A program made the position numbers and the translations under genes. A DNA stretch of 64,000 bases, taken from positions 1 through 64,000 of the IMG/VR virus record IMGVR_UViG_3300025133_000040. One strand, written 5' to 3'. The first letter of the stretch is position 1, and every line of letters starts with the position of its first letter. The notes under the pieces are model-generated. The model searched no databases, was not told the origin of the DNA, and saw nothing but the letters and a program-made list of their open reading frames with translations. The DNA is from a virus. This document shows positions 656 to 20,100 of this stretch, one piece after another.

Positions 656-1298
656 GCTAAGAGTACACGTTCCAGGGGGCTCTCGTAAGATAGCTGCCGA
701 CATTGCTAAGGTTGTCCTAAAGGATGTGCAGAACTCTCTGGCGGTCTCTAAGGCCCCTATCACTATTGGTGTTAGAAAGATAATCGCTAAGAGATTGCTT
801 AATAGCTCTGTTGTCAGGGAGTTGGAGAGGGGCGGTCAGTTGTATGGGGAGCTTGGTGTTCCAGATGCTCACGCTCGTGTAACTAACATAATAAGAGTAT
901 GGCTTAGAGGGATTGAGGTTAAGTTCACCCCTCTGAAACTTGCAGGAACCCGCATATCAGGGGGTCTGAAGATAACGGCGGTTGACGCCTCGTTTAAGGA
1001 TGTGTTGTCTCAGGGCGATGCTACCTTTGTGACTGCCAAATCAACTAGCCTACCTTGGCTAGAGTGGTTGCTTATGGAGGGGTCAAATTCAATTATTAAA
1101 GATTACACCGTAGGCGTGCATCCTACTAGAAGTCGTACGGGTCGATTGGTTATGGTTAAGACAAGCGCTAGTTCTTGGAGTGTCCCACCTGAGTTTAGCG
1201 GAACTATGAATAACAACTTTGTTACTAGAGCAATGGATGGCGCAGAGGAAGAAATTGATAAACTCCTGTCAAGAGAAATAAATAAGAGACTCAAATAA
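645..1298 (+). CDS. Putative neck/tail-completion protein (HK97 gp10-like position)
   Basis: GTG at 645 follows a GGAGG-like RBS; basic protein with WLEWLL...G and C-terminal NFVTRA motifs; synteny. Confidence 0.5.
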   Translation: MVAKLRVHVPGGSRKIAADIAKVVLKDVQNSLAVSKAPITIGVRKIIAKRLLNSSVVRELERGGQLYGELGVPDAHARVTNIIRVWLRGIEVKFTPLKLAGTRISGGLKITAVDASFKDVLSQGDATFVTAKSTSLPWLEWLLMEGSNSIIKDYTVGVHPTRSRTGRLVMVKTSASSWSVPPEFSGTMNNNFVTRAMDGAEEEIDKLLSREINKRLK

Positions 1299-2257: not shown

Positions 2258-2258
2258 C

Positions 2259-2268
2259 GGTGTATTAT
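2259..2268 (+). promoter_or_regulatory. Putative phage late promoter (GGTGTATTAT)
   Basis: Variant of the recurring GGTGTATAAT motif, intergenic, 45 nt before the tail tube ATG. Confidence 0.55.
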
Positions 2269-2312
2269 CACAGTACACCAGCATTTGTTTGATTATTTCG
2301 GAGAGCTATTAA

Positions 2313-3515
2313 ATGGCTAATAAAAGAATTTACTACGCTGTTCACGCAGTAGCTATTAAGGGAGACGGTGGTAACTACGATTTCGGTGTTACCAACGACT
2401 ACGAAGTAGCTCATGGCGTTCAGTCCGTAGGTGTTTCAACTAACTTTAACTTAGAGCAAGTCTTTCAGTTGGGTCAGTTAGAAATCTATGAAAACGTAGA
2501 GAATATTCCCGATGTGGAAATTACTCTGAACAAGGTTCTTGACGGTTATCCTTTGTTGTACCACATGGCTACACAAGATACTACCGCTGGACCATCTCTA
2601 GCCAACCGCTCAACTGCCGAGTGCATCTTCGGTATGGCTATTTACCAAGACACTGAGAACTCTGCCATCGCAGGTGCCAATAGCGCACCTAGCATCTTGG
2701 CTTGTTCCGGTATGTTTGTAGGCTCTGTGTCTTACAGCTTCCCTCTAGAAGATAACTTCAATGAAGATATTACTCTAGTTGGAAACCACAAGATTTGGAA
2801 GAACCAGCCGTCTCACGGTGCTGACATGGCCACGCTTCCACCAGTCACGTTTGATACAACGGACACTGGCCTTGACACAAACGATGACTCTCCTGTTGGT
2901 ACGGGTGGTATTAATCGTCGTCAAGACATCTTGTTCTCTTTCGTTGCTGCCTCTGGCACCGACGTTAACGGAGCCGTTAGCGACCCAGACTCCACCATTC
3001 TTCCTTACGACGTTGACGGTATTACCGACAGCGGTACTAACGAAGAAGACGTTAATGGAGACTACGGCGCTCACCTGTCGTCCATCTCAATCTCTGTTGA
3101 CCTTGGTCGTACAGAAATCAATGAGCTTGGTCGTCGCCTACCTTACACTCGTGTTGTTGACTTCCCAACAGAAGTTACCTGCGAGATTGAAACCACAACA
3201 AGTTCTGGTGACCTTGTTTCTGCCACAGAAGACGGCGTTTACGGTACTGGTACTGGCGCGTGTGTTGAAGGTGAAAACTTAATCAACCGCACAATCCGTA
3301 TCGCTACTTGTGAAGGTACTCGTATCTATCTAGGTACTAAGAACCGTCTGTCTGCTGTGAACTATTCTGGTGGCGATGCTGCTGGTGGCAATGTTAGTGT
3401 TTCTTATACTTACTCTACGTTCAACGACTTCGTGGTCTTGCACAGTGGTGAGCAGAACATTAACTCAACTGCCTCAACATGGTGGACCCAGCGTGGTGCT
3501 CACTTGGTTGGATAA
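2313..3515 (+). CDS. Major tail tube protein
   Basis: 400 aa, acidic, beta-rich; GVQSVG...FQLGQ and SISVDLGR.E..ELG tube-like motifs; own promoter, GGAG RBS and terminator; codon usage suggests high expression. Confidence 0.75.
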   Translation: MANKRIYYAVHAVAIKGDGGNYDFGVTNDYEVAHGVQSVGVSTNFNLEQVFQLGQLEIYENVENIPDVEITLNKVLDGYPLLYHMATQDTTAGPSLANRSTAECIFGMAIYQDTENSAIAGANSAPSILACSGMFVGSVSYSFPLEDNFNEDITLVGNHKIWKNQPSHGADMATLPPVTFDTTDTGLDTNDDSPVGTGGINRRQDILFSFVAASGTDVNGAVSDPDSTILPYDVDGITDSGTNEEDVNGDYGAHLSSISISVDLGRTEINELGRRLPYTRVVDFPTEVTCEIETTTSSGDLVSATEDGVYGTGTGACVEGENLINRTIRIATCEGTRIYLGTKNRLSAVNYSGGDAAGGNVSVSYTYSTFNDFVVLHSGEQNINSTASTWWTQRGAHLVG

Positions 3516-3522
3516 TTTAGAT

Positions 3523-3559
3523 AGGCTAGGGTCGTAAGAGGCCCTAGCTTATTTTTTTT
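3523..3559 (+). terminator. Rho-independent terminator after the tail tube gene
   Basis: AGGCTAGGGTC-gtaaga-GGCCCTAGCTT hairpin followed by a T-tract. Confidence 0.8.
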
Positions 3560-3586
3560 ATTATTAAGAAGGATTGTTGGCAAATT

Positions 3587-3704
3587 GCCTGGATAAGAGC
3601 CTTGAGGATGGGGTTCGGATTACAACTAGTTTCTTATCTAGGTCAACAGTGTATGCGATAGGCTCCTTGGCGGGTAGTCGAGTGACATTGATTGACCTTT
3701 TTTT
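3587..3704 (+). ncRNA. Candidate structured intergenic RNA (two long hairpins ending in a U-tract)
   Basis: 3587-3599 pairs with 3631-3643 (13 bp incl. G-U); 3641-3652 pairs with 3685-3697; T7 at 3698-3704. Confidence 0.4.
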
Positions 3705-3725
3705 ATTGGTTGAAGGAGACACACT

Positions 3726-4148
3726 GTGTGTGATTTTAGAAATCCACCAACAGGAATGGTGGAAGACGGTGAGAATATTCCCGTCACATTTAGAGGATAC
3801 GTTGATTATAGTTATCAACATTCTAAAGACTGGTACGACGATAATAACGTGCCACAATCCCCATATATGAGCGCCCACCCCTGGATGGGTGGAGACACCA
3901 AATTTGAAGAAGGTGCCTACTATGTTTGCGCTACGGGTAGTAGCTATCAATACTACGACGGTGAGCACTGGGAGCCCAGAGAGCTTCTATTTGAAGAAGG
4001 GGACGACTGGAGCTGTGGGCATCCTTTCGCTACTAGAACGGGCGTGGTGCCAGTAGGTGGTTGGAGTGGAGACGCCCCTCCATACTCAAGAATTAACATA
4101 TCAGCAGAACTAGGCAGGGATTTCTTTGAACTGCCCCAAGGAACTTAA
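3726..4148 (+). CDS. Hypothetical acidic, aromatic-rich protein
   Basis: GTG start after AAGGAG RBS; 140 aa. Confidence 0.6.
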   Translation: MCDFRNPPTGMVEDGENIPVTFRGYVDYSYQHSKDWYDDNNVPQSPYMSAHPWMGGDTKFEEGAYYVCATGSSYQYYDGEHWEPRELLFEEGDDWSCGHPFATRTGVVPVGGWSGDAPPYSRINISAELGRDFFELPQGT

Positions 4149-4150
4149 AG

Positions 4151-4366
4151 ATGGAACCAGAACAACTATATATTATTATTGGTCAACTATACGTAGACAC
4201 GGCGAGATTGCAAGCTGGTATAGAAAGCCTTAACGGGGTCATTAAGATGAAAGACACCGAAATCAATCAACTACAACAACAACTGATAGCGGCTACAAAT
4301 GGACAAACAGGACAAGCACAGGTTGATGTACCGGCTGTTGGCGGGGTACTGCCGCATAAGGCTTAA
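4151..4366 (+). CDS. Small coiled-coil hypothetical protein
   Basis: 71-aa ORF with heptad pattern, in operon. Confidence 0.55.
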   Translation: MEPEQLYIIIGQLYVDTARLQAGIESLNGVIKMKDTEINQLQQQLIAATNGQTGQAQVDVPAVGGVLPHKA

Positions 4367-5390
4367 CGACAAGACCTACTACATCAAATCCCCTACATCG
4401 GGAATGTTGTACGAGGCCGCTGAGGTGTACCGAGAGGTATACAACGAGAACGTCTATAAGGACTGGATGCGCGTTGCCGACGCCAGGAGACAGGCGATTA
4501 AGCAGGGCGTATGGCCTGAGGACGGAGACAAGAAGATTAAGGATTGTGACGACACCATAGAGAACAAGAAAATTGAACTCTACGAAACATTCTTGACAGA
4601 CCCAGAAAAGCACAAAGAAACTAAGGCAATCCTGTCTAATGTTAAGAAGTATCAGTCTAAGCTGTTGTCTCAGAAACACGCTTTCGACCATATGACACTT
4701 GAAGGATATGCTGAACACTGTAGTCAATGCCATCTGTTCTCTCAGATTATATGTGGCAGCGATAAGGAAAGGCTGTGGGCCTCTTACGAGACAACCAACA
4801 CCGGCCTACTACATCGCATAATGACAGAGTATCGTGCCAGGGCTATTGACCCCACCACGTTAAGGGAAATATCCCGCACAGAACCTTGGCGTAGCTATTG
4901 GTCTGCTGAGAAGGAAGGGGCCTTTGCTGACGGGATAGAGAACGACGACCAGCGCACCCTAGTCTTATACAGTAGAATGTACGACAGTGTGTATGGTCAT
5001 CCAGAGTGTCCGTCTGACGACGTTGTTTCAAATAACGACATGTTGGACGGGTGGCTGGCGCTCAACAAAAGGAAAGCAGAGAAAGACAGAAAGACCAAGG
5101 AAGTAGAGAACATACTTCCTAGTCATATTAAGGACGGCGCTCGCGAGGTTTTCATACCTGTGTCTCAGTTCAACAATAAGGGTGAAAGGATAAGCAAGGA
5201 GGAGCAAAACAAAAGGGCGGCTAAGATTTATAACCTGAACGATACTTCAGGAAGAGTTGCCATCAACAAGAGGGAAGCCTTTATTAAGAAACAAGGTGAG
5301 AATATAGTTGGCGCTGATATGCTCCCAGACACTAAGATTGAGCTAACCCACCAAGCTAAAGAGCAGTTTATGCAAAGAGTGAAAGGATAA
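4299..5390 (+). CDS. Putative tail assembly chaperone (long, GT-like paralog)
   Basis: Between tube and tape measure genes; N-terminal half aligns by eye with 5759..6658. Confidence 0.55.
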   Translation: MDKQDKHRLMYRLLAGYCRIRLNDKTYYIKSPTSGMLYEAAEVYREVYNENVYKDWMRVADARRQAIKQGVWPEDGDKKIKDCDDTIENKKIELYETFLTDPEKHKETKAILSNVKKYQSKLLSQKHAFDHMTLEGYAEHCSQCHLFSQIICGSDKERLWASYETTNTGLLHRIMTEYRARAIDPTTLREISRTEPWRSYWSAEKEGAFADGIENDDQRTLVLYSRMYDSVYGHPECPSDDVVSNNDMLDGWLALNKRKAEKDRKTKEVENILPSHIKDGAREVFIPVSQFNNKGERISKEEQNKRAAKIYNLNDTSGRVAINKREAFIKKQGENIVGADMLPDTKIELTHQAKEQFMQRVKG

Positions 5391-5394
5391 TAAA

Positions 5395-5766
5395 ATGGAC
5401 AACAGACATGAAATAAGGGCCATTAAGAACAGAGCTAGAGAGCTAAACAAAGAGCGCTCTCAAGCCAATTCTAAGAAGCAATTAATGAGCAATATAAAGA
5501 CCAAGTTCAAGACCACCATGATTGGTGCCTTGGATGCTTTCGAGAAGGGCTTCGGCCATCTTTGGGGTCATGGTCTTCGTGCCTCAGAACTCACAGAAGC
5601 AGAATTAGAGTTTCGTGAGAACTGGGAGGAAGCTAGAAGAGATGTGTTAGATAAAGGAAACCTTCAGTCTAGAGCAGCTATGGATGAAATAGCTCAACAC
5701 ACACTAGACTGGAATCGTCATCAATTGGAACTTGTAGTAAAGAATTCGGAGCCTACAAATGAGTAA
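5395..5766 (+). CDS. Hypothetical helical protein in the tail chaperone region
   Basis: 123 aa, AAGGA RBS, in operon. Confidence 0.6.
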   Translation: MDNRHEIRAIKNRARELNKERSQANSKKQLMSNIKTKFKTTMIGALDAFEKGFGHLWGHGLRASELTEAELEFRENWEEARRDVLDKGNLQSRAAMDEIAQHTLDWNRHQLELVVKNSEPTNE

Positions 5767-6658
5767 CAAAACCAAAAAGTCACAATTTACCGTCACAATC
5801 ACAGGTGAGGACGGACAAGAAAAAGAACTTAGCCTAGCCATTGCCAGTCCTACGTGGGACGAGCAGCAGGATGCTCAGGATAAGTACAACCTAACATTTA
5901 AGAGGGCCTGCGACAACGAAGCGTTGTTGAGACCGCGATTGGATGACTTCTTGAAGGACCAGAAGGTCTGGACGCCTGAAAAAGAGGCCGAGCTAACCAG
6001 CTTGCAGAAGCAATTTCAAGATTTGCTGTATAAGATGTCTAAGGGTGGTTCACTAGACGATTTGGTGCCCCTTACAAGGGAAATTAAGGAGACTCGTAAC
6101 AAGATTAACGAGATAGCCAACGTCAGAGACCAGTATTCAGGTAATACGGCTGAGGGTCAGGCTGAAAACATGCGATTTGCCTGCCTCCTAGCGGCCTCTG
6201 TGGTGTATAATGACACAGGGAAGCGATATTGGCCTACTGTAGATGACTACTTGGCCGAATCTAGCAATGAAGTGGCTGGTGCGGCAGCAGAAAAGTATGC
6301 TGCAATACTTGTCGGCCTTACCGACGAGAACCCAACGGCAGAGTTGCCTGAGAATAAGTTGCTCATTAAGCTAAAGCTGATGAACAAAGATTGTCGCTAC
6401 CTAACTAAGGACACCAAAAAGCCCTATGCTCCTATCAAGGTTGATGGCGAGTGGGTTGACATCCTTCTTGACAAAGAGGGTCGCTTTATCAACGAGGACG
6501 ATGAGCTGATTGACGCTTATGGTCGTTTAGTTGACGAAGATGGTGAGTTTGTCGAGGCTGGTCAGTGGGTTACGGACGAACCCAAGAAGGCCAAAAAGAC
6601 AAAGGCGAAGGTTGAAAAAGAGGCAAAGGCCGAGGCGAAGGACTGGGTCGAAGCCTAG
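5759..6658 (+). CDS. Putative tail assembly chaperone (G-like paralog)
   Basis: Directly upstream of the tape measure gene; helical; C-terminal D..G repeats; paralog of 4299..5390. Confidence 0.55.
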   Translation: MSNKTKKSQFTVTITGEDGQEKELSLAIASPTWDEQQDAQDKYNLTFKRACDNEALLRPRLDDFLKDQKVWTPEKEAELTSLQKQFQDLLYKMSKGGSLDDLVPLTREIKETRNKINEIANVRDQYSGNTAEGQAENMRFACLLAASVVYNDTGKRYWPTVDDYLAESSNEVAGAAAEKYAAILVGLTDENPTAELPENKLLIKLKLMNKDCRYLTKDTKKPYAPIKVDGEWVDILLDKEGRFINEDDELIDAYGRLVDEDGEFVEAGQWVTDEPKKAKKTKAKVEKEAKAEAKDWVEA

Positions 6659-6673
6659 AAATAGAAGTGGATA

Positions 6674-6746
6674 GTGGTTATACCGGCAGATGTTAGGGTG
6701 GAGGGTTTCGAGACCCAGCCTGTCTTCCGGTATAGCCATTTTTTTT
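6674..6746 (+). terminator. Long hairpin plus U-tract immediately before the tape measure gene
   Basis: GTGGTTATACCGG (6674-6686) pairs with CCGGTATAGCCAT (6727-6739); inner GGGTTTCGAGACCC hairpin; T8 follows. Confidence 0.6.
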
Positions 6747-6759
6747 ATAGGTAGGCTAA

Positions 6760-9700
6760 ATGGCTAAAACAGTAATTAATGCAGAGGTGCGAGTCAGTGG
6801 TCCTAAGGGACTAGCAGGTGTCGCACGACAAATTCAGCGTGGCTTAACTGGCATCTCGGCTAATGTCGGCGTCAAAATTAATCAGGCTGCTGCTAAAAAT
6901 GTAGCCGCCCTTGATAGCAACCTAAAGATTCTTAACGCAACCCTTAAAACCACTTCTGTTATGGGGTCTTCTGCCGCTGTTGGCATTAGTCAGGTTGGCG
7001 CTGCTGCTCGTAAGAGCGCTACCGCTATAGGCTCCGTTGGAAAGGCTGCCAATACGGCTTCTGCTGGAGTAGGCAAGGCTGCAAAGAACACCGAGAAGCT
7101 TAGCAATGAGATGGCTGAGTTCGGGCGTGTGTCTGGTTTGGCCATCCGTCGTTTTGCTGGCTTCTCTATTGCCACAGGCGTTATCTTTGGTCTTATTCGC
7201 GCAGTTAGCAATGCTACCAGCGAGGCCATTACATTTGAGCGCGAGATGATTCGTGTCGCTCAGGTTACCGGCGGTACGGTTGCCAGTTTGAGAGACCTTC
7301 AGAAAGAAGTTACGAGCCTCGCCACCGGCCTGGGTGTGTCCTCTACAGACCTTTTAAAGGTGTCTCGTATCCTGGCCCAGACAGGTCTAACCGCTAAAGA
7401 AACTGCTCAGGCTCTAGAAGCACTAGCGAAGTCTGAGCTTGCTCCTACATTTACAAACATTGAACAGACCGCCGAAGGTGCCATCGCCATTATGCGTCAG
7501 TTTGGTATCGAGGCCAGTGGCCTAGAAAAGGCTCTTGGTTCTGTTAATGCCGTTGCTGGTAAGTTCGCCGTTGAATCCGACGACATCATTCAAGCCGTGC
7601 GCCGTGCTGGTGGTGTGTTCGCCGCTGCCTCCCACGGAGTTAGTGAAGGCACAGACGCTCTTAACGAGTTCATTGCTGTGTTTACCTCTGTTCGTGCTAC
7701 GACTCGTGAATCTGCTGAGTCTATCGCTACTGGTTTGCGTACCATCTTTACTCGATTGCAAAGAAATACGACTATTGAGTCCTTAGAGGAGCTTGGTATT
7801 CGCATGAGGGACTTGGAGGGTAAGTTTGTTGGTCCCTACAAGGCTATCAACAATATCGCAATTGCTCTTGAAAAAATCGACCCACGAGACCGCAGGTTCG
7901 CAGCTATCGCTGAGGAACTTGGCGGCTTCCGTCAAATCTCCAAGGTCATCCCGTTGGTGCAGCAACTTGAAACTCGCCTGGGCGCTCTAGGTGTGGCGCA
8001 AGAAGGTCAAAGTTCACTAAGTAGGGACGCTGAGAAAGCTCAGGAGTCCTTAGCTGTTCAATTCCAAAAGACTCGTGAAAACTTCTCTGCTCTTATTCGT
8101 GAAGTTACTGCAAGCGATACGTTTAAGGCGTTCGCTAAGACCGCACTAGCACTTGCTGATGGTTTTATTGCTCTTGCGAGAACTGTTAAGCCTCTTATTC
8201 CAATCCTAACGGCTTTCGCCGCTATCAAGCTAGGCTCATCAGTAGCTCAATTCCTTGGTGGTTTTGGCACAGGTGCCAGAGGTGGTGGAGCTGGTGGTTT
8301 CGGAGTTGGCGCTGCCAACCTGCTTAGCGGTGCTAGATTTAATACTGGTGGCCTAGTTCCTGGTCGTGGTCCGAATAGGGATACTGTACCTGCTTCGTTG
8401 ACGAAGGGTGAATTTGTTATCCAGCGTCCTGCTGTTGACAACCTTGGCGTTCCTTTCTTGGAAAGGCTGAACAGAAACAAGGGTGGTTCTGTTCCTGGGT
8501 TTAATGATGGAGATTTCTTTGACGACGAAGGTAAAGCAAGTATACCTCCTGGTCAATTCCCACAGGCTTCTGGTATAGGGAGAGTAGATGTTAGCAATAA
8601 GAAGCTTGAGAACGCGGTAGACGTGGGGGGTCTTTTCTTGAGGCCCTTCGGAGTAGACAAGGTTGTTTCTGGAAGTATTCCCATTAACTCTTTCGCTCCT
8701 CAAAGCACGATAACAAAAGGCCCCAACAAGGGAAAATCTACAGGTTTGAGTTTTTCCCCTGGAAACAAAACAGAGCGAATAGCGGTTAAAAATAAATATG
8801 GACTAGCACAAAATGCAACTAAGATACCTTTTAATATCCACATTGGCTCCCTACCACAGTCATCGGCAGATGATTTTGAAGGAAATCTAGAAGGAATAAC
8901 TGCGAATTTTATTAAGGAGCAAGCCAAGTCCGTGTTCGGAGGCAAAGGACTCCCTAAGACCTCAGAAATTCGTAAAAACTTAGAAAAATTTAATTTCCCT
9001 CAAATTTCCGGCAACTTGTTTGAAGCTATGATTTCTTCGTCTAGTGGTAAGTTTGACGACAAGACTACCAGTAATGCCAATCTAGATTTTGATAGTATCA
9101 CATCAAGGGTTGCTACTGCATTTAACAACCCTGCTTTGGCGGGACTGCCGGGAGATGCTAAAAGAACCCTCGGGACGGAGGCTGTTGCGTCTTTAATTAA
9201 GAAGACAAAGAATTATATTTCTCAAACCGTCAAACCAGAAAAAAAGGGTCTCAACGAAGGCGGTCCTGGCGAAGTTAACGCTATGCTTACCAAGGGTGAG
9301 TTCGTTCTACAGAAAAAAGCCGTTGACCGAATCGGTGTTGCTAACGCTAGAAAACTAAACGACTCAACAGATACTCCGAAGTTTCATACCGGCGGTCTTG
9401 TTGGTCTTAACAAGGGTGGTGGTCTTCCTGGGTACAACAATGCAGGTCCAGTAAATAAACTAGGCGAGGAAGAAACCTATACAGACCTCTTTGAGCTAGG
9501 CGAAAAAGCGATATTAAAAGGAGGTAAGGCAGTAGAGTCTGGCTTTACGTCTCTTTTTGGTCTTCTTGTTGGTAAGGTTGAGGGCGCGAAGAAGTCTATT
9601 GCCGATAAAAAGGTTGCGAAAGCCGAGGCCGCCGATAAGCTCGCTGACAAAAGAGGGAGGGCTGGCTTAAAAAGCTTCATAGCCAATCGACCAGGAGGTA

Positions 9701-12700
9701 CTCCTCACGATAGGTTTAAAAACGCAAAGTCTCTTATTGGTAAAGAGCTAACTGACAAGGGCGTTGGCGCTAAAGACCTTCCCAAGGCAATGGCTGAGGT
9801 TGTTAGGGAGATTAGGAAAAACGGAGGAAATGTACCGGAGGCTATTTCTACAGTTGCTAAGAACGTAAATAAGGTCAACAACAACCTAAGCAAGGCCGCC
9901 GACAACTCTAAAGCAGTAGCCAATAAAACAGGTCAGGCAGCCACAACCGCCGCCAAGCAAAGCAAAGGAGGTGGGTTCTTTGCAAATAGAAGGGCAGAGA
10001 ACGAACTATTTAGGAGGGCGAAAGCAGGAGAAGAACTGGGAGAGAAAGACACTAAAAAACTTGAAGCTGCTAGTCAAAGAAGATTCCAGCAAAAAGCCCT
10101 TATAGGTCTTGCATCTACAGCAATCATAGGTGCTGTAAGTAGCCAAGCGGAAGTTGCTAGGAAAAAGGCCGTAGAATCTGGAGACGCAAGGGGTGCAGGC
10201 GTAGCTTCTGCTATTTCCGGTGCTGTCGGAGGCGCAGGAGCGGGCTTTGCTGTGGCTGGTCCCTTGGGTGCTGTTGTTGGCGGTGTCGCTGGAGCTGCTA
10301 GTGCTTTTATTAGCGCGCAACAAAGTGCTGCTGAAGAAATCGCACAAAACAAACTTAAGAAATCTCTTGATGGTCTAGCCAAGGAAGTTGAGATTTTCAA
10401 GAAAGATGGAACCTTAAAGGGGCTCAATGAAGCCATCAAGAAGGCTGGCAGCGCGGCAAGCGAAGCTGGTGATTCAATAAGGAGCAGGGCTACAGGCACA
10501 TTTGGTGGTCTTGTTGGTTCGGCATTGGTTCCTTCTTTAGGAGGGGGAAATGAAGGGGCAAAAGCCGGTGCGATACTAGGCCCTCTAGGATTGATAGCCA
10601 ACAGGCTTGAGTTGGTCGTTAATGGCTTTACAGGTAGCGACTCAGCAGGTGAGGATGTTAGAGCTGCCGCAGCTAAGTTTGATAAAAATGTGGCCGAAGA
10701 AACATTCAGAGGAGCCAAGTCAGCAGCGATTGAGAGTAAAAATGCCATCGCAGCACTGATAGAAAGAGGAAAGACCAATAAAGAAATTGCAACTCTTTTG
10801 CCAGACACCGTACAGGCACTTGCGCTTGGTACTGACAGCGATACAGTCGCAGCAATCAACAAAGCTGTTGAGGGCAGGGTTAAGGAAAGAAATGCTGAAC
10901 TACAAGCCAACACTAGGCCGAGGTACAATCGTGACACTTCTAGGCAAGTAGCTGCGACCGTTGGTAAAGATGAAGAAGCAAGAATCAGGCGGGAAGAGGA
11001 AACTAAGGCAGGCTTGGCTGCTCGTGCTAAGTTGCTTGATGCGGAAAGGAAGAGTAAGGAAGTAAGAGACAACCTAGCCATAGCTTCTAGGTTGGCGAAT
11101 AAAGAGGTGGATGCTCTTACCGACAGGTTGCTTGATTTTGGTGCTGCGTCTAAGGCTGCTACAGACGACCTAAACTTGTCTGTGAAGGGTGTTCTAGAGG
11201 ATATTTCTAATTTTGATGCTGACGTTGTTAGCGGCGGCGGCCCTAGGAAGAGAAACATATTTAAGAATATCAGAGGCACAGACAAAGAAACCGCAATAAG
11301 AGAAACAGACATTCTAACTGGCAGGCTTAGAAGTGAGGGTAACAACCAAGTAGCCGACGATATTGATGTTGGCGTTAAGTCGTTTAAGGAAGCTCAGGCA
11401 GTTCTTCCTGGCCTACTTCAGAAGTTCGCGTCTGAAAGAGCGAACAAACTAGACGAAGAAGGAAAGGACGTTGGTCTTGCGTTTGTTAGTGAACTAACAG
11501 AAGCTCTTGGGGACGATGTTCCTAATGCTTTGTCTAATCAAATAGTAACAACTATAAATAACGCCCTCTCTGCCTCTGGAGGTGGCGATAGCAGACAAAC
11601 TGCTGGTCAGACAGTTCAAGGGCTTATTGAGAGCGGAAGCGTAACCAGTAAGCTTTTTGAAGTACTTAAAAACGTCATTAATACTGCTGCCACCGAAACC
11701 GACCAGTTTAACAACAAGATTGTTAAGTACAATTCCTTAGCAGCAAAAAGGACTAGCTTACAAATAAGCCAAAACAGAGCGGAAGACGCAACCTTAAAAA
11801 TAAGACAAAGCAATCAAGGAATACTCGACGGTATCAACGAAGTAAGAGGCGGGGAGGGTGTTCGTAGCAGGTTTAGGTCCAGGGTAAGCTCCCTTACAAC
11901 TAGGGGTGGATTATCTGGAACTCTAGACGCAAGCGCCATAGCAACAAGGATAGCTAGTGACCGCTCGAAAAGACAGGGCTTAATCGACCAGCAAAGAAAA
12001 CTAAGAGACAGAGGTGAGGACGGAGACCTAGCCGCAGTAAACGCGCTCCAATCTGAAATTGATGCTCTTAGCACCTCTCTTGTAGACAACAAGGCAGCGC
12101 TAACTCTACTAAGCACAAGCACAGACGAACTTACCGCAATTCAAAAAGACATTGCAGACCTTGAGAGAAGGAAGCAGCTTGGTGAAAAGGACTTTGAGCA
12201 ACTTGCAACAGGAGGCCCTCAAGAGATAATTGAGTTGACAAGAAGAATACAGGCTGGCTTTAGTTTCTTGTCTGGTAATGTAACTGCAAAAGGAGGAATT
12301 GCTGGCGTTAAGACGATAGAAAATATATTTAGGGGTAGCAACGACGACAAATCCGCAGACTTTGTAACCAAGCAAAAAGATGACCTGATTATAAAAAGCC
12401 TTCGCGATAGGAAGATTCTTCCAAAAAGCGTAATTAGTGGTCGTGAAGAGGTTATCGGAGGTAAGGACAAGCTAAAGGCAGACGCAGAAGAAGCAGCTAG
12501 AAAGCGACTTGCCGCCGCTAGAAAAGCTGAGGAACTTGCGAGAGCTAGTAATACTCTAGCCATAACAGAACTAACAAAAGCAATGGACAGAGTGGCGGCT
12601 GCCGTTGGGGCACCTAAGTTAGGCGCTAAGAATGGCGCTATTGTTCCCGGTGCTGGACTTGGGGCTGGTGGGGGTATGGGTGACCGTGTTCCAGCTATGC

Positions 12701-13704
12701 TTGAGCCTGGAGAGCTTGTTGTTCCAAATAGAAGTGCTGGTGCTACCGTTGCTGCTATGCAAGCTGCCGGTATTCCTGTTCCTGGGTTTAGAAATGGAAC
12801 TCGTCGTGTTACTAGATACAAGCCACAAGGCTTTGCTGCTAAGAAGGAAGAGACTAAAGAACTTAAAAAGCGAATAGAAATACTAACGAGAAATGCCAGG
12901 TATAGAGCTAGAAATCAACCGCTAGGCCCCGGTGGCAGCAGGATGACCAAAGAGCAAGAGCAGCAACTTGCTGACGCCATCGCGAGGCTAAGGAGGAAGA
13001 CTCCGACTCCAGACCTAGAAAGGCGAGCCGAAGCCTCAAGGAAAGTCGCAAGGGAAAAAACTAATCGAGGAAGACCTGGATTTGGCCATGGTCGCGGTAT
13101 TAGACAAGCGGCAGCACAAATACTAGATAGTGAGCAGCACCAAAACGTACGAAAGAGAGCTGCTAACAGGTCTCTTAACGCACAGAGAAGGTTTGGGTTA
13201 AGCAGGGTTCGTCAGCGAGCTATGGAAATCACAGCCAGGACCGGAGGAAGAGGAGGATATGAGCAAGCAAGAAACGAGATTAGGGCTGAAGTAGCTGCTG
13301 AAAAAGCAAGAAAGAGACAGGCGTATCTAAACCGCCGTGGTATGCAAAGCGGAGGTAGAGCGCCTGGAGGAACTCCTGTTAGCAGAGGTGGCGGTGCTGG
13401 TAACTTTGCTCAAGTAGCAGACGCTATGAAGGGTGCTGCTGAGAGCCTTAATAAGTTAGTAAGTGGATTGGGTGAAATAAATATCCCAGAAAGAATTGAA
13501 ATGTCAGCCACTATCGAGCATAATGTTAATATAAACGGTGCTGAAGTCCTGTCTCAAATGAAAGAGGGATTAGCCGCCGTAGCAAGAGATGTTGTAATTA
13601 CTGAGCTGTCGAAGCACATGGACCTAACAACAGGCGAGACTAACGAGTCGAGCGGAAGCGGGTCAACAGGCGGTCAGACCCCAATCGCAGGAAAGGCTGT
13701 GTAA
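6760..13704 (+). CDS. Tail tape measure protein (TP901-like core) with accessory domains
   Basis: 2314 aa, Ala/Gly-rich and helical; FEREMIRVAQVTG and TRESAESIATGLRTIFTRL TMP-core motifs; glycine zippers; synteny. Confidence 0.9.
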   Translation: MAKTVINAEVRVSGPKGLAGVARQIQRGLTGISANVGVKINQAAAKNVAALDSNLKILNATLKTTSVMGSSAAVGISQVGAAARKSATAIGSVGKAANTASAGVGKAAKNTEKLSNEMAEFGRVSGLAIRRFAGFSIATGVIFGLIRAVSNATSEAITFEREMIRVAQVTGGTVASLRDLQKEVTSLATGLGVSSTDLLKVSRILAQTGLTAKETAQALEALAKSELAPTFTNIEQTAEGAIAIMRQFGIEASGLEKALGSVNAVAGKFAVESDDIIQAVRRAGGVFAAASHGVSEGTDALNEFIAVFTSVRATTRESAESIATGLRTIFTRLQRNTTIESLEELGIRMRDLEGKFVGPYKAINNIAIALEKIDPRDRRFAAIAEELGGFRQISKVIPLVQQLETRLGALGVAQEGQSSLSRDAEKAQESLAVQFQKTRENFSALIREVTASDTFKAFAKTALALADGFIALARTVKPLIPILTAFAAIKLGSSVAQFLGGFGTGARGGGAGGFGVGAANLLSGARFNTGGLVPGRGPNRDTVPASLTKGEFVIQRPAVDNLGVPFLERLNRNKGGSVPGFNDGDFFDDEGKASIPPGQFPQASGIGRVDVSNKKLENAVDVGGLFLRPFGVDKVVSGSIPINSFAPQSTITKGPNKGKSTGLSFSPGNKTERIAVKNKYGLAQNATKIPFNIHIGSLPQSSADDFEGNLEGITANFIKEQAKSVFGGKGLPKTSEIRKNLEKFNFPQISGNLFEAMISSSSGKFDDKTTSNANLDFDSITSRVATAFNNPALAGLPGDAKRTLGTEAVASLIKKTKNYISQTVKPEKKGLNEGGPGEVNAMLTKGEFVLQKKAVDRIGVANARKLNDSTDTPKFHTGGLVGLNKGGGLPGYNNAGPVNKLGEEETYTDLFELGEKAILKGGKAVESGFTSLFGLLVGKVEGAKKSIADKKVAKAEAADKLADKRGRAGLKSFIANRPGGTPHDRFKNAKSLIGKELTDKGVGAKDLPKAMAEVVREIRKNGGNVPEAISTVAKNVNKVNNNLSKAADNSKAVANKTGQAATTAAKQSKGGGFFANRRAENELFRRAKAGEELGEKDTKKLEAASQRRFQQKALIGLASTAIIGAVSSQAEVARKKAVESGDARGAGVASAISGAVGGAGAGFAVAGPLGAVVGGVAGAASAFISAQQSAAEEIAQNKLKKSLDGLAKEVEIFKKDGTLKGLNEAIKKAGSAASEAGDSIRSRATGTFGGLVGSALVPSLGGGNEGAKAGAILGPLGLIANRLELVVNGFTGSDSAGEDVRAAAAKFDKNVAEETFRGAKSAAIESKNAIAALIERGKTNKEIATLLPDTVQALALGTDSDTVAAINKAVEGRVKERNAELQANTRPRYNRDTSRQVAATVGKDEEARIRREEETKAGLAARAKLLDAERKSKEVRDNLAIASRLANKEVDALTDRLLDFGAASKAATDDLNLSVKGVLEDISNFDADVVSGGGPRKRNIFKNIRGTDKETAIRETDILTGRLRSEGNNQVADDIDVGVKSFKEAQAVLPGLLQKFASERANKLDEEGKDVGLAFVSELTEALGDDVPNALSNQIVTTINNALSASGGGDSRQTAGQTVQGLIESGSVTSKLFEVLKNVINTAATETDQFNNKIVKYNSLAAKRTSLQISQNRAEDATLKIRQSNQGILDGINEVRGGEGVRSRFRSRVSSLTTRGGLSGTLDASAIATRIASDRSKRQGLIDQQRKLRDRGEDGDLAAVNALQSEIDALSTSLVDNKAALTLLSTSTDELTAIQKDIADLERRKQLGEKDFEQLATGGPQEIIELTRRIQAGFSFLSGNVTAKGGIAGVKTIENIFRGSNDDKSADFVTKQKDDLIIKSLRDRKILPKSVISGREEVIGGKDKLKADAEEAARKRLAAARKAEELARASNTLAITELTKAMDRVAAAVGAPKLGAKNGAIVPGAGLGAGGGMGDRVPAMLEPGELVVPNRSAGATVAAMQAAGIPVPGFRNGTRRVTRYKPQGFAAKKEETKELKKRIEILTRNARYRARNQPLGPGGSRMTKEQEQQLADAIARLRRKTPTPDLERRAEASRKVAREKTNRGRPGFGHGRGIRQAAAQILDSEQHQNVRKRAANRSLNAQRRFGLSRVRQRAMEITARTGGRGGYEQARNEIRAEVAAEKARKRQAYLNRRGMQSGGRAPGGTPVSRGGGAGNFAQVADAMKGAAESLNKLVSGLGEINIPERIEMSATIEHNVNINGAEVLSQMKEGLAAVARDVVITELSKHMDLTTGETNESSGSGSTGGQTPIAGKAV

Positions 13705-15246
13705 ATGAGTACTGTAACTATGAACTATGGGGACTATGCGTTTAGTCCGGTTCCCCTAATGAACATTAGTAAGGAGTATCAGAAAACCGACGATGGAACC
13801 ATCGTAGGCACACTCTTTAATGTTTCATTGGAAGGTACGCTTACGCCCCTGCCCTCTGGAGCTGTTGGCTACCTTGCCGTAGACGCACTTCAAGATGGTC
13901 TTCGCTCAGCAATGGCAGAGCAAGGAAATCTGTTTAAGGTTCAGTGTGATGCTACCACCCTTATTGAGGCATATCCAAGGATAAATAGTCTGTCGCTTAA
14001 TAGTTCTAACAACCAGTGGGTTATGACATGTCCTTACAGCATCAACCTAGAGTGGGACGATGAGCCCAATGCGTCTGGTGAGAACTCAGGAATAATGCCT
14101 CCGTATATCTCAGCCACTTCCGAGGAGTGGAGCCTAGAGTTTGCTGAGGAAAGCGCCGCCTTTGACTGGGACTTAGACAACGGAACTAAGGATGCCATGA
14201 GCCCCATTCTCCGTCTTAGCCACTCTGTTTCTGCCACAGGAAAGAAGCACTATAGTAGTGCAGGCGGTACTGCTGGTCAGCTAGACCTACCGGCGTGGGA
14301 GCAAGCACGTAACTACGTAATGACAAAACTTGGTCAAGACGAACAGTTTGTTGCTAATACTGGCGTGCTAAATCTCGACGTTAGTGAGTACGGTTACTTT
14401 AATCATATTCGCTCCGTCACGGTGGGTGAGCTTGCTGGTACTTATGCCGTACAAGAGAACTGGGTTGTGTTTCCTGAGAGCGCTACTGGTGTTCCAGGTA
14501 AGGCTTTAGAGGATTTTAGCATTGAGGTTCGTGAGAGCCAAGACAATGGACTAATAAGTGTTGGTATTAACGGTTCAGTTCAAGGACTAGAAGAAAGAAG
14601 CTACGGCACCACATCTGGTCAGTTTGCAATTGCGACCACCAAGTATGCTAACGCTCTGTCTTATTGGAATGTTGTAAAGACTAGACTGTATTGGAGGGCC
14701 AACGAAGCTCTTAACAATACAACAACAACAACAAGAGGGTTGCACACGCAGGCGAAAACAAGTTCCATAGGCCACAGCCCTAGCAAAGGAACAGTTACAT
14801 ATAACTATGAATATGATGACCGTGCTTGCAATATTATTTCAGGCGCTAAGTCTGAGTCTATTCAAATTAACGACACTCATCCTACAGATGTATTTGCGGA
14901 GTTGGCAGTACTGGGTAGAGCCAACGGACCTATTCTACAGTCTATGAGTACGGTAAGCGCAGCAACTCGCGATGTGTCTATCGAGGTTGTGATGGGAGCA
15001 CCAAGTGGAGACTGCACAAGTTGCAGCTCTCAGTTTAGCAGTATGCTTGGCTTGTCGAACGCCCCCACAGGGGAAGTAGAAACCCTTCTGTGTTGCTTTC
15101 AGACAGACCTAACAGACGCATACAGTCAGGTATTCAAAACTTCGGACTCCTCAAGCTGGAATCCAAAGTCAGGAAGATATTCAAGAAACGTAACGTGGAC
15201 GTATACCAATTGTAGCGGTACGGCCCCAAGCACAACATTTTGTTAA
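13705..15246 (+). CDS. Putative distal tail/baseplate protein
   Basis: 513 aa, beta-rich, directly after the tape measure gene. Confidence 0.6.
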   Translation: MSTVTMNYGDYAFSPVPLMNISKEYQKTDDGTIVGTLFNVSLEGTLTPLPSGAVGYLAVDALQDGLRSAMAEQGNLFKVQCDATTLIEAYPRINSLSLNSSNNQWVMTCPYSINLEWDDEPNASGENSGIMPPYISATSEEWSLEFAEESAAFDWDLDNGTKDAMSPILRLSHSVSATGKKHYSSAGGTAGQLDLPAWEQARNYVMTKLGQDEQFVANTGVLNLDVSEYGYFNHIRSVTVGELAGTYAVQENWVVFPESATGVPGKALEDFSIEVRESQDNGLISVGINGSVQGLEERSYGTTSGQFAIATTKYANALSYWNVVKTRLYWRANEALNNTTTTTRGLHTQAKTSSIGHSPSKGTVTYNYEYDDRACNIISGAKSESIQINDTHPTDVFAELAVLGRANGPILQSMSTVSAATRDVSIEVVMGAPSGDCTSCSSQFSSMLGLSNAPTGEVETLLCCFQTDLTDAYSQVFKTSDSSSWNPKSGRYSRNVTWTYTNCSGTAPSTTFC

Positions 15247-15255
15247 GGTATAATC

Positions 15256-15630
15256 ATGGCAGCAACTAAAAGCACAACAGTCATTCAGAACAGCGTGACT
15301 CTCTCTGCTGGTGGTGGACCAACGACTACTTCTAGTGCAAGTGTCGCCACCGGCTTCGGAGCTTCTTTATTTTTAAAGATTACTAACGGAGCAACAGCAC
15401 CTACGACCCAGGCAACCGCAAGGATAGAGGTAAGCCCAGACGGCACAAACTTCTACGATTTAAGCGGCGGCACAGAGGACTTGAACGGGGGAACTACAAA
15501 TGCAGATGTAACCTCTAATCACTTTGAACTACCAATCGGCATCCAGTCTGTACGCATTGTTGCGACACACGGAGACGACCAGGACATCACAATCCGTTCA
15601 GAGGTGAGTGACATAACAGCGGTAGCGTAA
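15256..15630 (+). CDS. Small virion structural protein (beta-sandwich)
   Basis: Thr/Ser-rich 124 aa; IEVSPDGTNFYD motif. Confidence 0.55.
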   Translation: MAATKSTTVIQNSVTLSAGGGPTTTSSASVATGFGASLFLKITNGATAPTTQATARIEVSPDGTNFYDLSGGTEDLNGGTTNADVTSNHFELPIGIQSVRIVATHGDDQDITIRSEVSDITAVA

Positions 15631-17111
15631 TGATAGTATCACCAGCAATACTAGGAGCAATTCTAAGAACCTCTGAAGCCAGGGGTGAGTTGCAACACCA
15701 TTGGGATTTCCTTGAGGGCTCAGGCTCCGTGGCGCACGATGATGTTGGCCTTCTTGATGCCTCATTCCAGGGAACTCCGACCTTTGACTCTGATATTCCT
15801 ACGGTGCTTTTTGAGGGCGCTACCGACTCCCTGTTGTTCGATGGCAGTACTGATTACCTTACAATCCCGCAGGCTACTACTGCCTGGGACACAACCAGTG
15901 CTCAGACACTTGTCTTCTGGGTTAAGGCAGACGCAATAGGTGGTGTTGCGGCAGCAAATGAGTTCCCAACTATCATCTCCCTCACCAGCGACCAGAGTGA
16001 GTCATTTACTATATGGCTTAACGACACTCACGACAGTGTTAACTCTGATGGCTTGAACTTTGGCTTCCAGGGTCTTTACGATAAAAATGTAAGTACCTCA
16101 GCCACTTTCCTAGGTAACTGGGTGCATGTCGCTATTGTTTACGACGGTGTTAGCTACAACTCTGATAGCAGCTACACTATATATGTCAACGGTGTTTCGC
16201 AAAGCATCACAGCAAGCGGGGCTCCACCAGCGCACACAGAAATCACACAGATTGGGAAGGGGACCACGACCACCAGCTTCTTTGATGGTCGCCTATTCGA
16301 TATAAGGGTGTACAACAAAGCCCTTACTAGTGGTGAGGTCTCCGCATTGGACGCAGGCTACAACAACCTATGGGAGGGCGCTGACGACAGTTGGAATACG
16401 GCTTCTAACTGGCCGCTTAATGGTGTGCCCACGTCAGATGACGCTGTTTTGTTTGATAGTACAGATAATTCAGATTGTCTTGTTGATATTAATAGGCCAA
16501 CCGTGTATAATCTTACTATAGCGGCGTCTTACACTGGGACGTTTACTATGTCTAGCTTCTTTACTGTGACAAATGATTTCTCTCATTTAAGCACGGCTGG
16601 CACGGTTCTATATCCTCAGACACTCCTAGTTGGAGGGGACTGTGACATAGACGAAGTCCTGCACCAGGACAACATTAAGGATACAACGATTGAAATGAAT
16701 GGTAGTACGGCCCAAACCCTAACGCTGCCCGACACAGCCTCAATCGTTATTGACAAGCTTATAATTAACTCTGGGGACACTGTCACTTTGGCAGGCACAC
16801 TGACCCAGGTTAAGTTAAATCGCTTAGAAGTTTCCCTTGGGGAATTGGCCGTTGCCTCTAAGTACCTAACAATAACAGACGACCTAGACGTAATCGGAGG
16901 AACGATTACTGGTCTTTCTACTGCCACAGCTCACACTGTAGGTGGTTCTGCCCGTTTGTACGGTGATAGTAAAATCAGCTTATTAAACCTGGGCTTCGCC
17001 AGTGCGACAGAATTTAATGTCACTGGTGGTTTTTTCATAAGGAACGCTACTGTAGGAAACTTGAACGCATCTGGGACAGGTGCCCAATGCTTGAATTGCA
17101 CAGAGGCTTAA
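15630..17111 (+). CDS. LamG/concanavalin-like domain virion protein with C-terminal beta-helix repeats
   Basis: HWDF.EGSG, FDGSTDY, WVHVAIVYDG, IYVNG and FDGRLFDIRVYNKAL LamG motifs; W.TASNW...VP...D passenger-like region. Confidence 0.8.
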   Translation: MIVSPAILGAILRTSEARGELQHHWDFLEGSGSVAHDDVGLLDASFQGTPTFDSDIPTVLFEGATDSLLFDGSTDYLTIPQATTAWDTTSAQTLVFWVKADAIGGVAAANEFPTIISLTSDQSESFTIWLNDTHDSVNSDGLNFGFQGLYDKNVSTSATFLGNWVHVAIVYDGVSYNSDSSYTIYVNGVSQSITASGAPPAHTEITQIGKGTTTTSFFDGRLFDIRVYNKALTSGEVSALDAGYNNLWEGADDSWNTASNWPLNGVPTSDDAVLFDSTDNSDCLVDINRPTVYNLTIAASYTGTFTMSSFFTVTNDFSHLSTAGTVLYPQTLLVGGDCDIDEVLHQDNIKDTTIEMNGSTAQTLTLPDTASIVIDKLIINSGDTVTLAGTLTQVKLNRLEVSLGELAVASKYLTITDDLDVIGGTITGLSTATAHTVGGSARLYGDSKISLLNLGFASATEFNVTGGFFIRNATVGNLNASGTGAQCLNCTEA

Positions 17112-17117
17112 GGAAAC

Positions 17118-20100
17118 ATGGCAAATACAAACGTAACATTTAGCACATTAGGACAGCCCGTAAAAAACGACTGTAGTCCAGACAGGGTCTATGGCGGGTT
17201 TGAGCAAACAATTTTCTTAGGGGCTAGTGTATCTTCATTTTCAGCCTCCGTTGGTTGGAACGAACAAACATCTGACGTTACAGTCACTTTAGTTGAAGAC
17301 ACATGCCCAGCACCGAGTGCTAGGCCCAAGGTTTATTGGGACTCAAACCTTAATAAGCAAACTACGGCTGCTGCTGACCCAGGATTTATAGGGGAAACAG
17401 TTCCTATTATTGGTGTACCTGTGTACTTTAGGGTGGGCGACTTTGAATTCTCTGGCATAGTACAGAGTTGGGAGGAAAACAATTCTAGCTCTGGTAAGCC
17501 GGTATACACTGTTAAGATTTCTGACGGTCGAAGTATCTTAGACGGCGTCCATCTTATTATTAATGAATACGCAGGAGGTGTAGGCAGTCAGTTTAATGCC
17601 TTCAACGTCTACGGATATATGGAAAGCTTTGGTGAAAGCTGCCCTTTAACCACGATTAACGGCGCTCAGTTCGGAACTCCAGCCGGTGGCTTCGGAGGGT
17701 CAAACTCAAACAACAACGGAATGGCTGCTGCCGACATAAGTAGGGGCTTTAATGTTCTGTCGAATTCTATTCCCGCAACTATAAATCCGTACTCCCCTTA
17801 TGGTCGTGTTGTAAGCAAGGGAACCACTGGTGGAAGTTACGGGGTTGTTAACAGGGATGGCGTCCTGCTAAACACAAGTGTTTCTTCGTACTATATTGAT
17901 ATTTCTGAACTACCAACAGTTCCTAGTTACTATCGTATTAACGGTATCAGCGTCACCTTGTCTGAGTATGTTAGTCGTATTTGTCAAGATGCAGGGTATG
18001 ACTATTACTGGGAAATGGTAATGGTTAAGAACAACGACTTGGCCAGTAGCGGCATCGGTAAGTTTCTAAAGCTAAGAACGGCATCAAGGCTAGTCCAGCC
18101 ATCTTTTGGCGAAATACAAAATTTCATAGACAACAGCGACGGAACAATAAGCAGCTCAACAGGCAGGGAGCTACGCCAAGAGGCTGTCGCCTCTATTCTG
18201 GTAGGTGGTAATGTTGAGGGCGTATTCCAAGCAGAACAACATACCTCTCCTGGTTTTTTTGTCGGCGCTACTGCGTGTGACGAAGAAGACGACATGATTC
18301 TTCCTTATTTTGGCCTGGACTCTGCCCAGGATATTATAGTCCCATGTAGGAACGCTGTAACTGATGAGTGGGAGATTACCGTAGATGCTACAGACATCAA
18401 TGCGGTAATGACAACAGTGACCCTTCCGACAACTGTCACTATCACAGAGGCAGAGATAAGGGCCGTAGAGGGCTCAATGGATGTGTGGCTGTCTATTGAG
18501 AGTGCGTACCACCAAAGCGGTGCCGCAACAGACATTGGCGGCGAGCTTTATGGAGCAGGCAAGGTGTTTGGAAGAGGAGAGGGAATTAGTAAAATGTTGC
18601 AGAAGGTTATAACCGCTGCAAAAAACGGAAATCCAATAGAATTTGCCGGGGCTGTCGGAGGTATGTTCATAGGTTCGCTAGATGGAGACCAAGAAAGAAT
18701 AGCAGACATTAAAGCTATATATGAATGGATTAAAACCTACTCTAGTTTCTACGGCACCCACTTCATGGTTAGGGTTCCGTACACATGTGCTGTTCAAGAC
18801 CCTGACAGCACAAACCTTGTCTATAGCGAGCAGCCACAGCAAGACGGCTGGACAGATGAGTCTCAAATTATAGGACTGTCTACAAGCGGTCTCCCTATTA
18901 AGTTTTTCATAAACCAAACCGGCAAGGTTGAGGCTATGGTCCGTATCGACGGAATAGCTAGGACAAATTTATCAGAACTAGATGTTAATACGTACATTAC
19001 TGACGGAAGCAGTATGTGGATAAAAGCTAGTGTGGAGGATGAAGAGTGGGTGTATCACGATAAGAGCGCCCTAACAAACCCAAGGGCTGTTATATCAATA
19101 CCTCATCCGGTCAACACATACGACGAAGTTCAGCCAGACGTACTAGCGCTAGGAATTAAAAAAATGTTCACTGTCTTAGGCGGCACAGAGCCACAATGGA
19201 CAGCGTTTAAAGACATACTACTCAAAGAAGGCTCAGACATACTAAGCTCATACTTCCCATCGTCTAAGACTATGCCAGACGCCGCATCTTTCGGTATAAA
19301 AAACAATGTTTTAACGTATGGGCCGTGGACGAACACTGGAGTGCCTGGGCCGATAAGGATAGAACGCAACGACGGACTAGTGCCATGGGAGTACGATGGC
19401 ACCACAGCAATGAACGCCGCCGGTCAAGCATTGGCCAACGAGGGTATTACTAATATGGTACTAGGAGAAATGGGGTCAGTTAGTGTCCCTGGCTATCCAG
19501 ACCTTCCTCTTGGTGCAGAAATCGGAGCACTAGCTGGTGGCTTCTACGGAGGGGGCACGAACCTCATTGAAAATAGAAACCATAGCATTGGTAATTTTGA
19601 AGACACCCTACCTGGAGGAGGTAGTCTTTCTGTCGTGTATGGGTTCTTTACGTACGGAGGTGCCTGGACTGGATTGTATGGCCCTAATATTACCAATATA
19701 TCTCTATCGGTTGGTACGAGCGGCCTTACTACAAGCTACACAATGAGAACTTTCACTCCCAAGTTTGGCAGGTTCGCAAAGCTCAACTCCGAAAGGCTTC
19801 GTCAGCAAGGACAGCTAAGAAACGAAATACTAACAGAGAGAGCGTCAAGAAGGCAGAACTTTGAGGGTAGAAGATTTAAAGCCGCAGCAAGCAGGTATGC
19901 TAGAAGAGTTAAAGACAATCTAAACCTACCACACCACCATGGTCAAGGTATTGCGAACACTAGCCACCACCTACTAACTGGTCAGTACGGAGGTGCTGGT
20001 GTTGACTACGCATCGGTTAGTGCTAAAAGCGCTTTTGATGTGGTCAGGGAAATAGGCGAAGACTACGCAAGTAAGCACTTTATGGGTCTTGATAGTGTGT

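Follow-up and report, generated by a model that had tools for sequence, protein, structure and literature searches.

The tape measure gene and its three modules

The DNA analyzed here (the window) comprises positions 1 to 64,000 of the IMG/VR record IMGVR_UViG_3300025133_000040, which is 111,831 bases long, has an IMG/VR completeness rating of 74%, and comes from an uncultured large siphophage-like virus. On its plus strand, the window contains a single uninterrupted open reading frame (ORF) of 2,314 codons (6760-13704), and the subject of this work is a module of about 55 residues that occurs three times in the product, P0001. Residues 144-488 of P0001 (7189-8223) match TIGR01760 with 100 bits against a cutoff of 28.8 (E = 1e-28), residues 182-389 match PF10145 (E = 2.2e-23), and several tape-measure PHROGs are matched as well. 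Judged by these family matches, the ORF encodes a genuine tape measure protein (TMP) with a TP901-type core. The core fills the N-terminal quarter of P0001, and residues 1-525 are 50-63% identical in the best-matching relatives; P0001 is without a close cultured relative, the nearest cultured-phage TMP core being that of SPbeta at 23% identity. Glycine makes up 11% of the protein, and Kyte-Doolittle windows mark hydrophobic segments of the membrane type at residues 127-150, 468-500, and 1147-1187.

An initial annotation, made from the letters of the window, had described the TMP as a polyprotein with repeated xNxGG motifs and a triplicated module, and had read the motifs as processing or recombination junctions that let the protein carry exchangeable cargo into the host. 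The twelve strings on which it relied (nine motifs and three module strings) are all found where it had placed them, in the frame of 6760-13704. To characterize the module, we used a profile built from homologous module copies and searched it against the whole 111.8-kb virus record. Exactly three places matched, all inside the TMP gene (match extents 8332-8493, 9256-9402, and 12616-12798), with E values of 1.2e-22, 6.5e-16, and 3.8e-11, respectively, far beyond chance; the three-copy module is therefore real. Its consensus is [FY]xxGG-x(5-10)-D-T-V-P-A-x-L-T-x-G-E-F-V-I-x(3)-A-V-x(3)-G-x(3)-L-x(3)-N-x(2-7)-GG. Aligning 108 modules showed no variation at three positions (the Gly of the N flank, the Leu, and the Glu of GEF) and conservation of 90% or more at D, V, A, T, P, G, F, V, L, N, and the Gly of the C flank. 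Ungapped DNA identity among the three modules of P0001, with module 2 one residue out of register, is 26-37%, a weak figure by itself.

Module 1 (residues 526-583; 8335-8508) is flanked by FNTGG and LNRNKGG. Module 2 (residues 838-875; 9271-9384) is shortened at its N terminus, where it lacks the GGxVPGxG stretch, and has LNEGG upstream at 9250 and FHTGG at 9382. Module 3 (residues 1957-2010; 12628-12789) lies between AKNGA and FRNG. The listed motifs thus sort into N-terminal flanks (FNTGG, LNEGG, and AKNGA; general pattern [FY]xxGG) and C-terminal flanks (RNKGG, FHTGG, and FRNG; general pattern LNx..GG), while the remaining two, LNKGG and YNNAG, belong to the Gly-rich linker past module 2. 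As a signal of its own, xNxGG did not hold up: the strict pattern fits four of the nine strings, against 1.5 in protein shuffles (P = 0.07), and a looser pattern is seen 11 times against 7.9 in shuffles (P = 0.17). The GG motifs are flanks of the three modules plus linker rather than an independent signal.

The modules separate segments of distinct composition, as had been proposed. Module 1 is preceded by a hydrophobic Gly/Ala-rich stretch (residues 455-525; 8122-8334; G 0.20, A 0.23) that includes the Kyte-Doolittle segment 468-500, and it has GG on both sides. Upstream of module 2 there is only LNEGG, and upstream of module 3 lies GAGLGAGGGMG. Slot 1, between modules 1 and 2, holds an insert of 254 residues (residues 584-837; 8509-9270), and the Gly-rich linker with LNKGG and YNNAG follows module 2 (residues 876-905; 9385-9474; G 0.30). 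The long unit between the linker and module 3 (residues 906-1956; 9475-12627) consists of a K/A-rich part, a hydrophobic glycine-zipper stretch (residues 1131-1215; 10150-10404), assigned by composition and hydropathy, and a low-proline stretch; its composition suggests that it is probably mostly helical. Module 3 is followed by a basic Arg-rich segment (residues 2011-2235; 12790-13464; R 0.17, net charge +34), which may bind nucleic acid or membrane, and the first half of this segment diverges even between close relatives. The protein ends in a conserved stretch of about 80 residues (residues 2236-2314; 13465-13704) that is 100% identical in a related TMP, P0002, and 82-97% identical in L086, the closest relative described below, and that is kept in distant homologs. 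By analogy with the TMPs of lambda, Douge, and JBD30, whose C termini lie in the hub, this is the probable tail-tip-binding end.

In an AF2 model of residues 520-900, the module takes the form of a beta-hairpin and two short helices (pLDDT 60-79), and the insert is a compact, globular alpha/beta domain with pLDDT 80-90 over about residues 620-825. When the module was modeled alone with 108 sequences, pLDDT was 60 and the hairpin was lost, and no structure matched the lone model at a Z of at least 2. The low pLDDT of the lone module fits folding that depends on a partner.

Exchange of segments between related phages

L086, encoded on metagenome contig Ga0209349_1000916 (TMP at 1888-9066), is a colinear frame of 2,393 residues that is 94% identical to P0001 in the core. 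Nucleotide identity between the two genes is 76-100% over the core and module 1 (residues 1-560; 92-100% over 441-560), falls to 50-69% in the insert (601-840), returns to 93-97% over module 2 and the linker (841-960), drops to 33-57% across the helical unit (961-1960), reaches 85% in module 3 (1961-2000), and goes from 36-51% at the start of the basic segment (2001-2120) to 87-92% at the C-terminal end (2201-2314). Third-position identity at conserved residues moves in parallel, from 92-100% down to about 30-40%. Module 3, with 90% amino acid and 85% nucleotide identity, stands inside a region of 31-45%. The helical unit is 15-52% identical to that of L086 in amino acid sequence and mostly 7-57% identical to that of P0002, where conservation peaks at the glycine zipper. 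At the protein level, the comparison with P0002 gives the same mosaic, again with its edges at the modules. L086 is a natural recombinant with replacements in three places, namely, the insert, the helical unit of 1,000 residues, and the basic segment, and it is useful for mapping the junctions that a TMP tolerates.

We then located identity breakpoints in 11 TMP pairs whose cores share 84% identity or more, after removal of runs shorter than 60 residues. Within 30 residues of a module lay 27 of the 70 breakpoints, compared with 7.6 ± 2.6 at random, a 3.5-fold enrichment that none of 5,000 simulations reached. The first breakpoint fell inside module 1 or at most 11 residues from it in all 11 pairs, and identity recovered at or shortly before module 2 in seven. 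In eight pairs, identity at 4-fold synonymous sites was 60-80% in windows of high identity versus 35-48% in windows of low identity. Since synonymous identity falls too, the segments differ in age, which means recombination rather than only unequal constraint. Breakpoint enrichment, the DNA mosaic of L086, and the synonymous drop in eight pairs together support the earlier proposal of recombination junctions. These comparisons support the view that whole segments are exchanged between related phages by recombination at or inside the modules.

Slot 1 illustrates what can be exchanged. In 53 distinct relatives, it ranges from 220 to 2,212 residues. An ADP-ribosyltransferase (ART) exoenzyme domain, PF03496, occupies it in 7 of 51 relatives (best E = 2.8e-15), and an iterative search found the ART domain in about 10 distinct TMPs, in slot 1 wherever both flanking modules are present. 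Its position varies, and it can directly follow module 1 or directly precede module 2; examples lie at 6053-6664 of relative L068 and at 11729-12319 of relative L005. L005 and L008 have cores that are 92% identical, yet L005 carries the ART domain and L008 a domain of the type found in the window, homologs of which occur in 25 of 83 related TMPs. Of the exchangeable-cargo claim, the part about differing slot content is supported in relatives, and delivery into the host would be expected from what is known of other TMPs.

For the insert in P0001 itself, the model of residues 520-900 found no related fold in the PDB (Foldseek E > 0.9; best VIA Z 3.8, to unrelated folds), searching the BFVD with that model returned only pieces of other TMPs, and the insert had no Pfam match, no usable ESM Atlas match, and no stand-alone homolog of 139-445 residues. 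A companion reading takes it for a PD-(D/E)xK nuclease effector. The strings GNLFEA, NLDFD, and GDAKRT are ordered and spaced as in such a nuclease, the insert fragment has E236 and D257 invariant among aligned sequences, and two restriction enzymes, PspGI and Bse634I, are among the fold matches. However, those two matches have Z of 2.5 and are placed 47th and 50th, behind GTPases and ribosomal proteins, which are unrelated; Foldseek gave nothing below E 0.9, the Pfam, stand-alone, and Atlas searches were equally empty, and the Lys of "DAK" is Thr in 8 of 13 aligned sequences and Lys in 5. We regard a nuclease as improbable and did not retain the assignment.

The module in other tape measure proteins and its surroundings

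The module profile matches 31,959 representative proteins at E ≤ 1e-3, and 1,674 of these at E ≤ 1e-30. A single protein can hold as many as 11 copies, and the longest of the proteins has 7,872 residues. Among cultured phages, 201 records contain the module, nearly all of them in the annotated TMP, with two places per record in Gordonia phages. Of 539 IMG/VR relatives of the P0001 TMP, we kept 80, with frames of up to 5,797 residues, most of which carry two to eight modules; the first module directly follows the core in every one. First copies find their best match in first copies of other proteins in 58 of 59 cases, and a later copy is most similar to a copy within its own protein in 3 of 116. 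The module copies therefore behave, by sequence similarity, as positional orthologs that are not homogenized, and this best-hit analysis argues against recent duplication or concerted evolution of the three modules of P0001. A spacing of about 1,000-1,300 residues between modules recurs in many relatives. We also considered whether the giant relatives are tandem repeats of the helical unit (residues 876-1956) and rejected this, as the unit is single in each matched protein: 45 related TMPs carry one homologous copy each. The later inter-module segments of the giant relatives contain no Pfam domain except a weak EF-hand; in L004, a relative of 4,561 residues, the match (E = 8e-5, below the family cutoff) opens a late inter-module segment at 11609-15163.

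None of the 108 modules matches a Pfam family, and no NCBIfam family was found for modules 1 and 3, the two of three that were checked. TIGR01541, which covers residues 472-813 of lambda gpH, matches neither P0001 nor single modules at E ≤ 0.1, and Pfam PF09718 (Tape_meas_lam_C) covers lambda residues 627-701, outside the module. Because no Pfam or NCBIfam model describes the module alone, it is uncatalogued as such, and literature searches on tape measure proteins returned no description of the module, its repetition, or the exchange pattern. Among PDB sequences, a single module sequence found no match, and the profile matched two entries, lambda gpH (8iyk_H; residues 732-785; 22.3 bits, E = 2.2e-4 over the whole PDB) and gp16 of mycobacteriophage Douge, the latter twice (residues 965-1027 and 1411-1464; E = 4e-13). 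P0001 combines a known type of TMP core with three copies of a known but unnamed lambda element, and the segments that these copies separate can be swapped.

The lambda match lies just past the presumed maturation cut. Processing within the Gly-rich C-terminal region of lambda gpH yields gpH* (about 78 kDa) and gpHC, with neither the site nor the protease known (PMC12617516). We computed that a cut after any of residues 710-731 would give a product of 77.7-79.5 kDa, which places it just before FHFATGG. The lambda protein then has the same order as P0001 at module 1, namely, a Gly-rich hydrophobic stretch, FHFATGG, the module, and GYATGGYVG, and gpHC is made up of the module and, after it, the C-terminal helix that binds the tip, an arrangement matched by module 3 and the C-terminal end of P0001. 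In contrast to P0001, lambda gpH has one copy in 853 residues, a TMP_2 core (PF06791), and no inserts between copies, and P0001 falls short of TIGR01541, the model covering the lambda region. The TMPs of Douge (gp16; PDB 8ZDO/8ZDQ) and of Gordonia phages are cultured-phage examples with two module copies; they are much shorter than P0001 (1,699 residues), and the Douge structure paper does not remark on the modules.

Two further systems resemble the module in form. T5 pb2* ends in 43 residues that come after two hydrophobic helices and occupy a crevice of the opened hub (PMC10038345), and the prediction for JBD30 gp46 places a "hook", made of two helices with a short hairpin, beside the proposed cut (PMC11445458). 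In both, once the hub has opened, the TMP is said to be anchored there by a small element that lies beside hydrophobic helices and a maturation cut. The predicted hook has the same secondary structure as our in-context module model, a hairpin and two helices, which makes it a working resemblance rather than a demonstrated homology. T5 pb2C, of 92 residues, begins with AEGGMMYPG right after R1127. In L087 (near position 12400, minus strand; pb2 residues 1124-1150), the start of pb2C, AEGGMMYPGVSYQMGEHGTEVV, resembles the module pattern [FY]xxGG..PG..GE..V by eye; it could be a very diverged module copy that overlaps the proposed carboxypeptidase signature and that the profile fails to detect.

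Enzymes that are built into, or travel with, the ejected contents of tails or heads are familiar from SPbeta YomI, the TMPs of mycobacteriophages with their motifs, and T4 Alt, an injected ART. In those cases, the enzymes either hydrolyze the cell wall from a fixed position in the protein or are head proteins in their own right, whereas the slot of P0001-type TMPs is bounded by repeated modules and differs in content between close relatives.

The genes around the TMP gene are mostly unfamiliar. The five same-strand ORFs upstream (1298-6658) have no PHROG match and no Pfam match above threshold, and two of them, at 4299-5390 and 5759-6658, occupy the usual chaperone position without a family match. 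Downstream, at 13705-21467, same-strand ORFs of 513, 124, 493, and 1,449 residues follow, in which two domains alone were recognized, F5/8 type C at 15256-15630 and Laminin_G_3 at 15630-17111. These two domains suit tail-tip proteins, and the ORFs are probably distal tail, hub, and fiber genes; the same-strand neighbors are otherwise almost devoid of family matches. The structural gene module of this phage is very distant from catalogued families. Gene orientation flips from plus to minus near 22.3 kb (about 22100-22500), and cumulative GC skew turns at this switch, with a peak at about 22 kb.

A probable cassette architecture and its alternatives

The comparisons show the module to be a strongly conserved, position-specific element that bounds independently evolving and exchanged segments and coincides with the edges of recombination. 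The best overall explanation, to which we assign a probability of about 0.65, is a TMP divided by three junction modules between which segments are swapped as cassettes, with the module itself retained for a structural role. The modules act as homology arms through which the slot-1 insert, the helical unit, and the basic segment are exchanged. What keeps the module in place would be a structural job in the tail lumen or at the tip; it may be a hook of a hairpin and helices that folds only against a partner, like the T5 pb2* anchor and the JBD30 gp46 prediction. Maturation cleavage, if any, would follow lambda and T5 in taking place shortly before the GG flank of a module, and not at every motif listed in the initial annotation. 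By this analogy, the N-terminal Gly flank is the likely place of cleavage where cleavage occurs, and module 3 with the C-terminal end would correspond to lambda gpHC. The segments would leave the tail ahead of the DNA, so that the content of slot 1 would reach the host envelope or cytoplasm.

Several points weigh against this explanation. More than half of the 70 breakpoints lie away from modules, smoothing limits breakpoint precision to about ±20 residues, and 3 of the 11 pairs are saturated at synonymous sites and thus uninformative. The modules are conserved islands, and this could itself be the source of part of the breakpoint enrichment. The available structures resolve only residues 818-849 of lambda gpH and 1658-1699 of Douge gp16, and neither stretch includes the module (PMC10721106, PMC13033339). 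Scored against T5 pb2, the module profile gives -1.6 bits, at an unrelated place, and without profile similarity the hook likeness is one of analogy and not of homology. Cleavage and ejection, finally, are argued for P0001 and its relatives by analogy only.

How far cleavage extends separates the cassette explanation from the polyprotein of the initial annotation. As a true polyprotein, the precursor would be cut at every module into about four products, packed in the tail and injected separately: the core ruler, module 1 with the insert, module 2 with the helical unit, and module 3 with the basic tail-tip piece. The lambda and T5 TMPs are each cut once, in lambda next to the module and in T5 next to a flank that is module-like by eye only; each module of P0001 is preceded by a Gly-rich or flexible stretch, and enzyme domains such as the ART of the relatives would plausibly act better once released. 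However, the lambda site is estimated from gel mass only, and the module profile does not bear out the T5 resemblance. None of the ten neighboring ORFs scanned matched a protease family, the whole record not having been screened for proteases, and the Douge TMP, with two internal modules, is modeled as one trimer along the whole tube, in a paper whose scope does not include cleavage. We therefore consider a full polyprotein unlikely, though a serious competitor. That modules 1 and 2 are also cut, as a true polyprotein demands, seems doubtful, and slightly more doubtful still is that each module is a self-contained maturation signal, cut upstream of every GG flank so that several proteins are injected ahead of the DNA.

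It is likewise possible, but unlikely to about the same degree as the polyprotein, that the modules are never cut and serve as structural nodes that dock or oligomerize, with the tube lumen, the hub, or a chaperone, along a continuous ruler. Exchange would then be a by-product of conserved islands, and the sequence between modules a less constrained spacer without meaning as cargo. The recurring module spacing of about 1,000-1,300 residues fits such nodes, as do the colinearity of the helical unit in the 45 relatives matched, the lack of a detectable enzyme domain in most inter-module sequence, and the failure of the lone module to fold with confidence. Against this, slot 1 holds well-folded globular domains, ART among them in relatives, which are not spacers. 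A TMP ruler measures about 1.5 Å per residue, and one of 5,000-7,800 residues would imply tails of 0.75-1.2 μm if all of it measured length. Chance similarity, low complexity, or an assembly artifact could be suspected of a protein with 11% glycine in which xNxGG alone is not above chance. This suspicion is refuted by module E values of 1e-11 to 1e-22, by thousands of homologs, and by L086, whose colinear, full-length frame makes an assembly chimera of the 2,314-residue frame unlikely; we give it practically no weight.

The usual view of TMPs is that of simple rulers that are cut once, at a late stage. The element beside the unmapped cut of lambda gpH is a very common, uncatalogued building block, present in about 32,000 representative proteins, and it marks where related phages exchange whole segments, enzyme domains included. 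The modules are natural boundaries that tolerate replacement of TMP segments, which helps to understand what tails deliver besides DNA, and they offer a rule for annotating giant tail proteins in metagenomes. For lambda-like phages, the module is also a specific candidate, open to experiment, for the signal that underlies TMP maturation. If it were indeed a maturation signal, the tail would be a programmable multi-protein delivery device, loaded with a ruler, with proteins that form channels, and with exchangeable effectors (ADP-ribosyltransferases, for example), and the module would be its universal cassette boundary.

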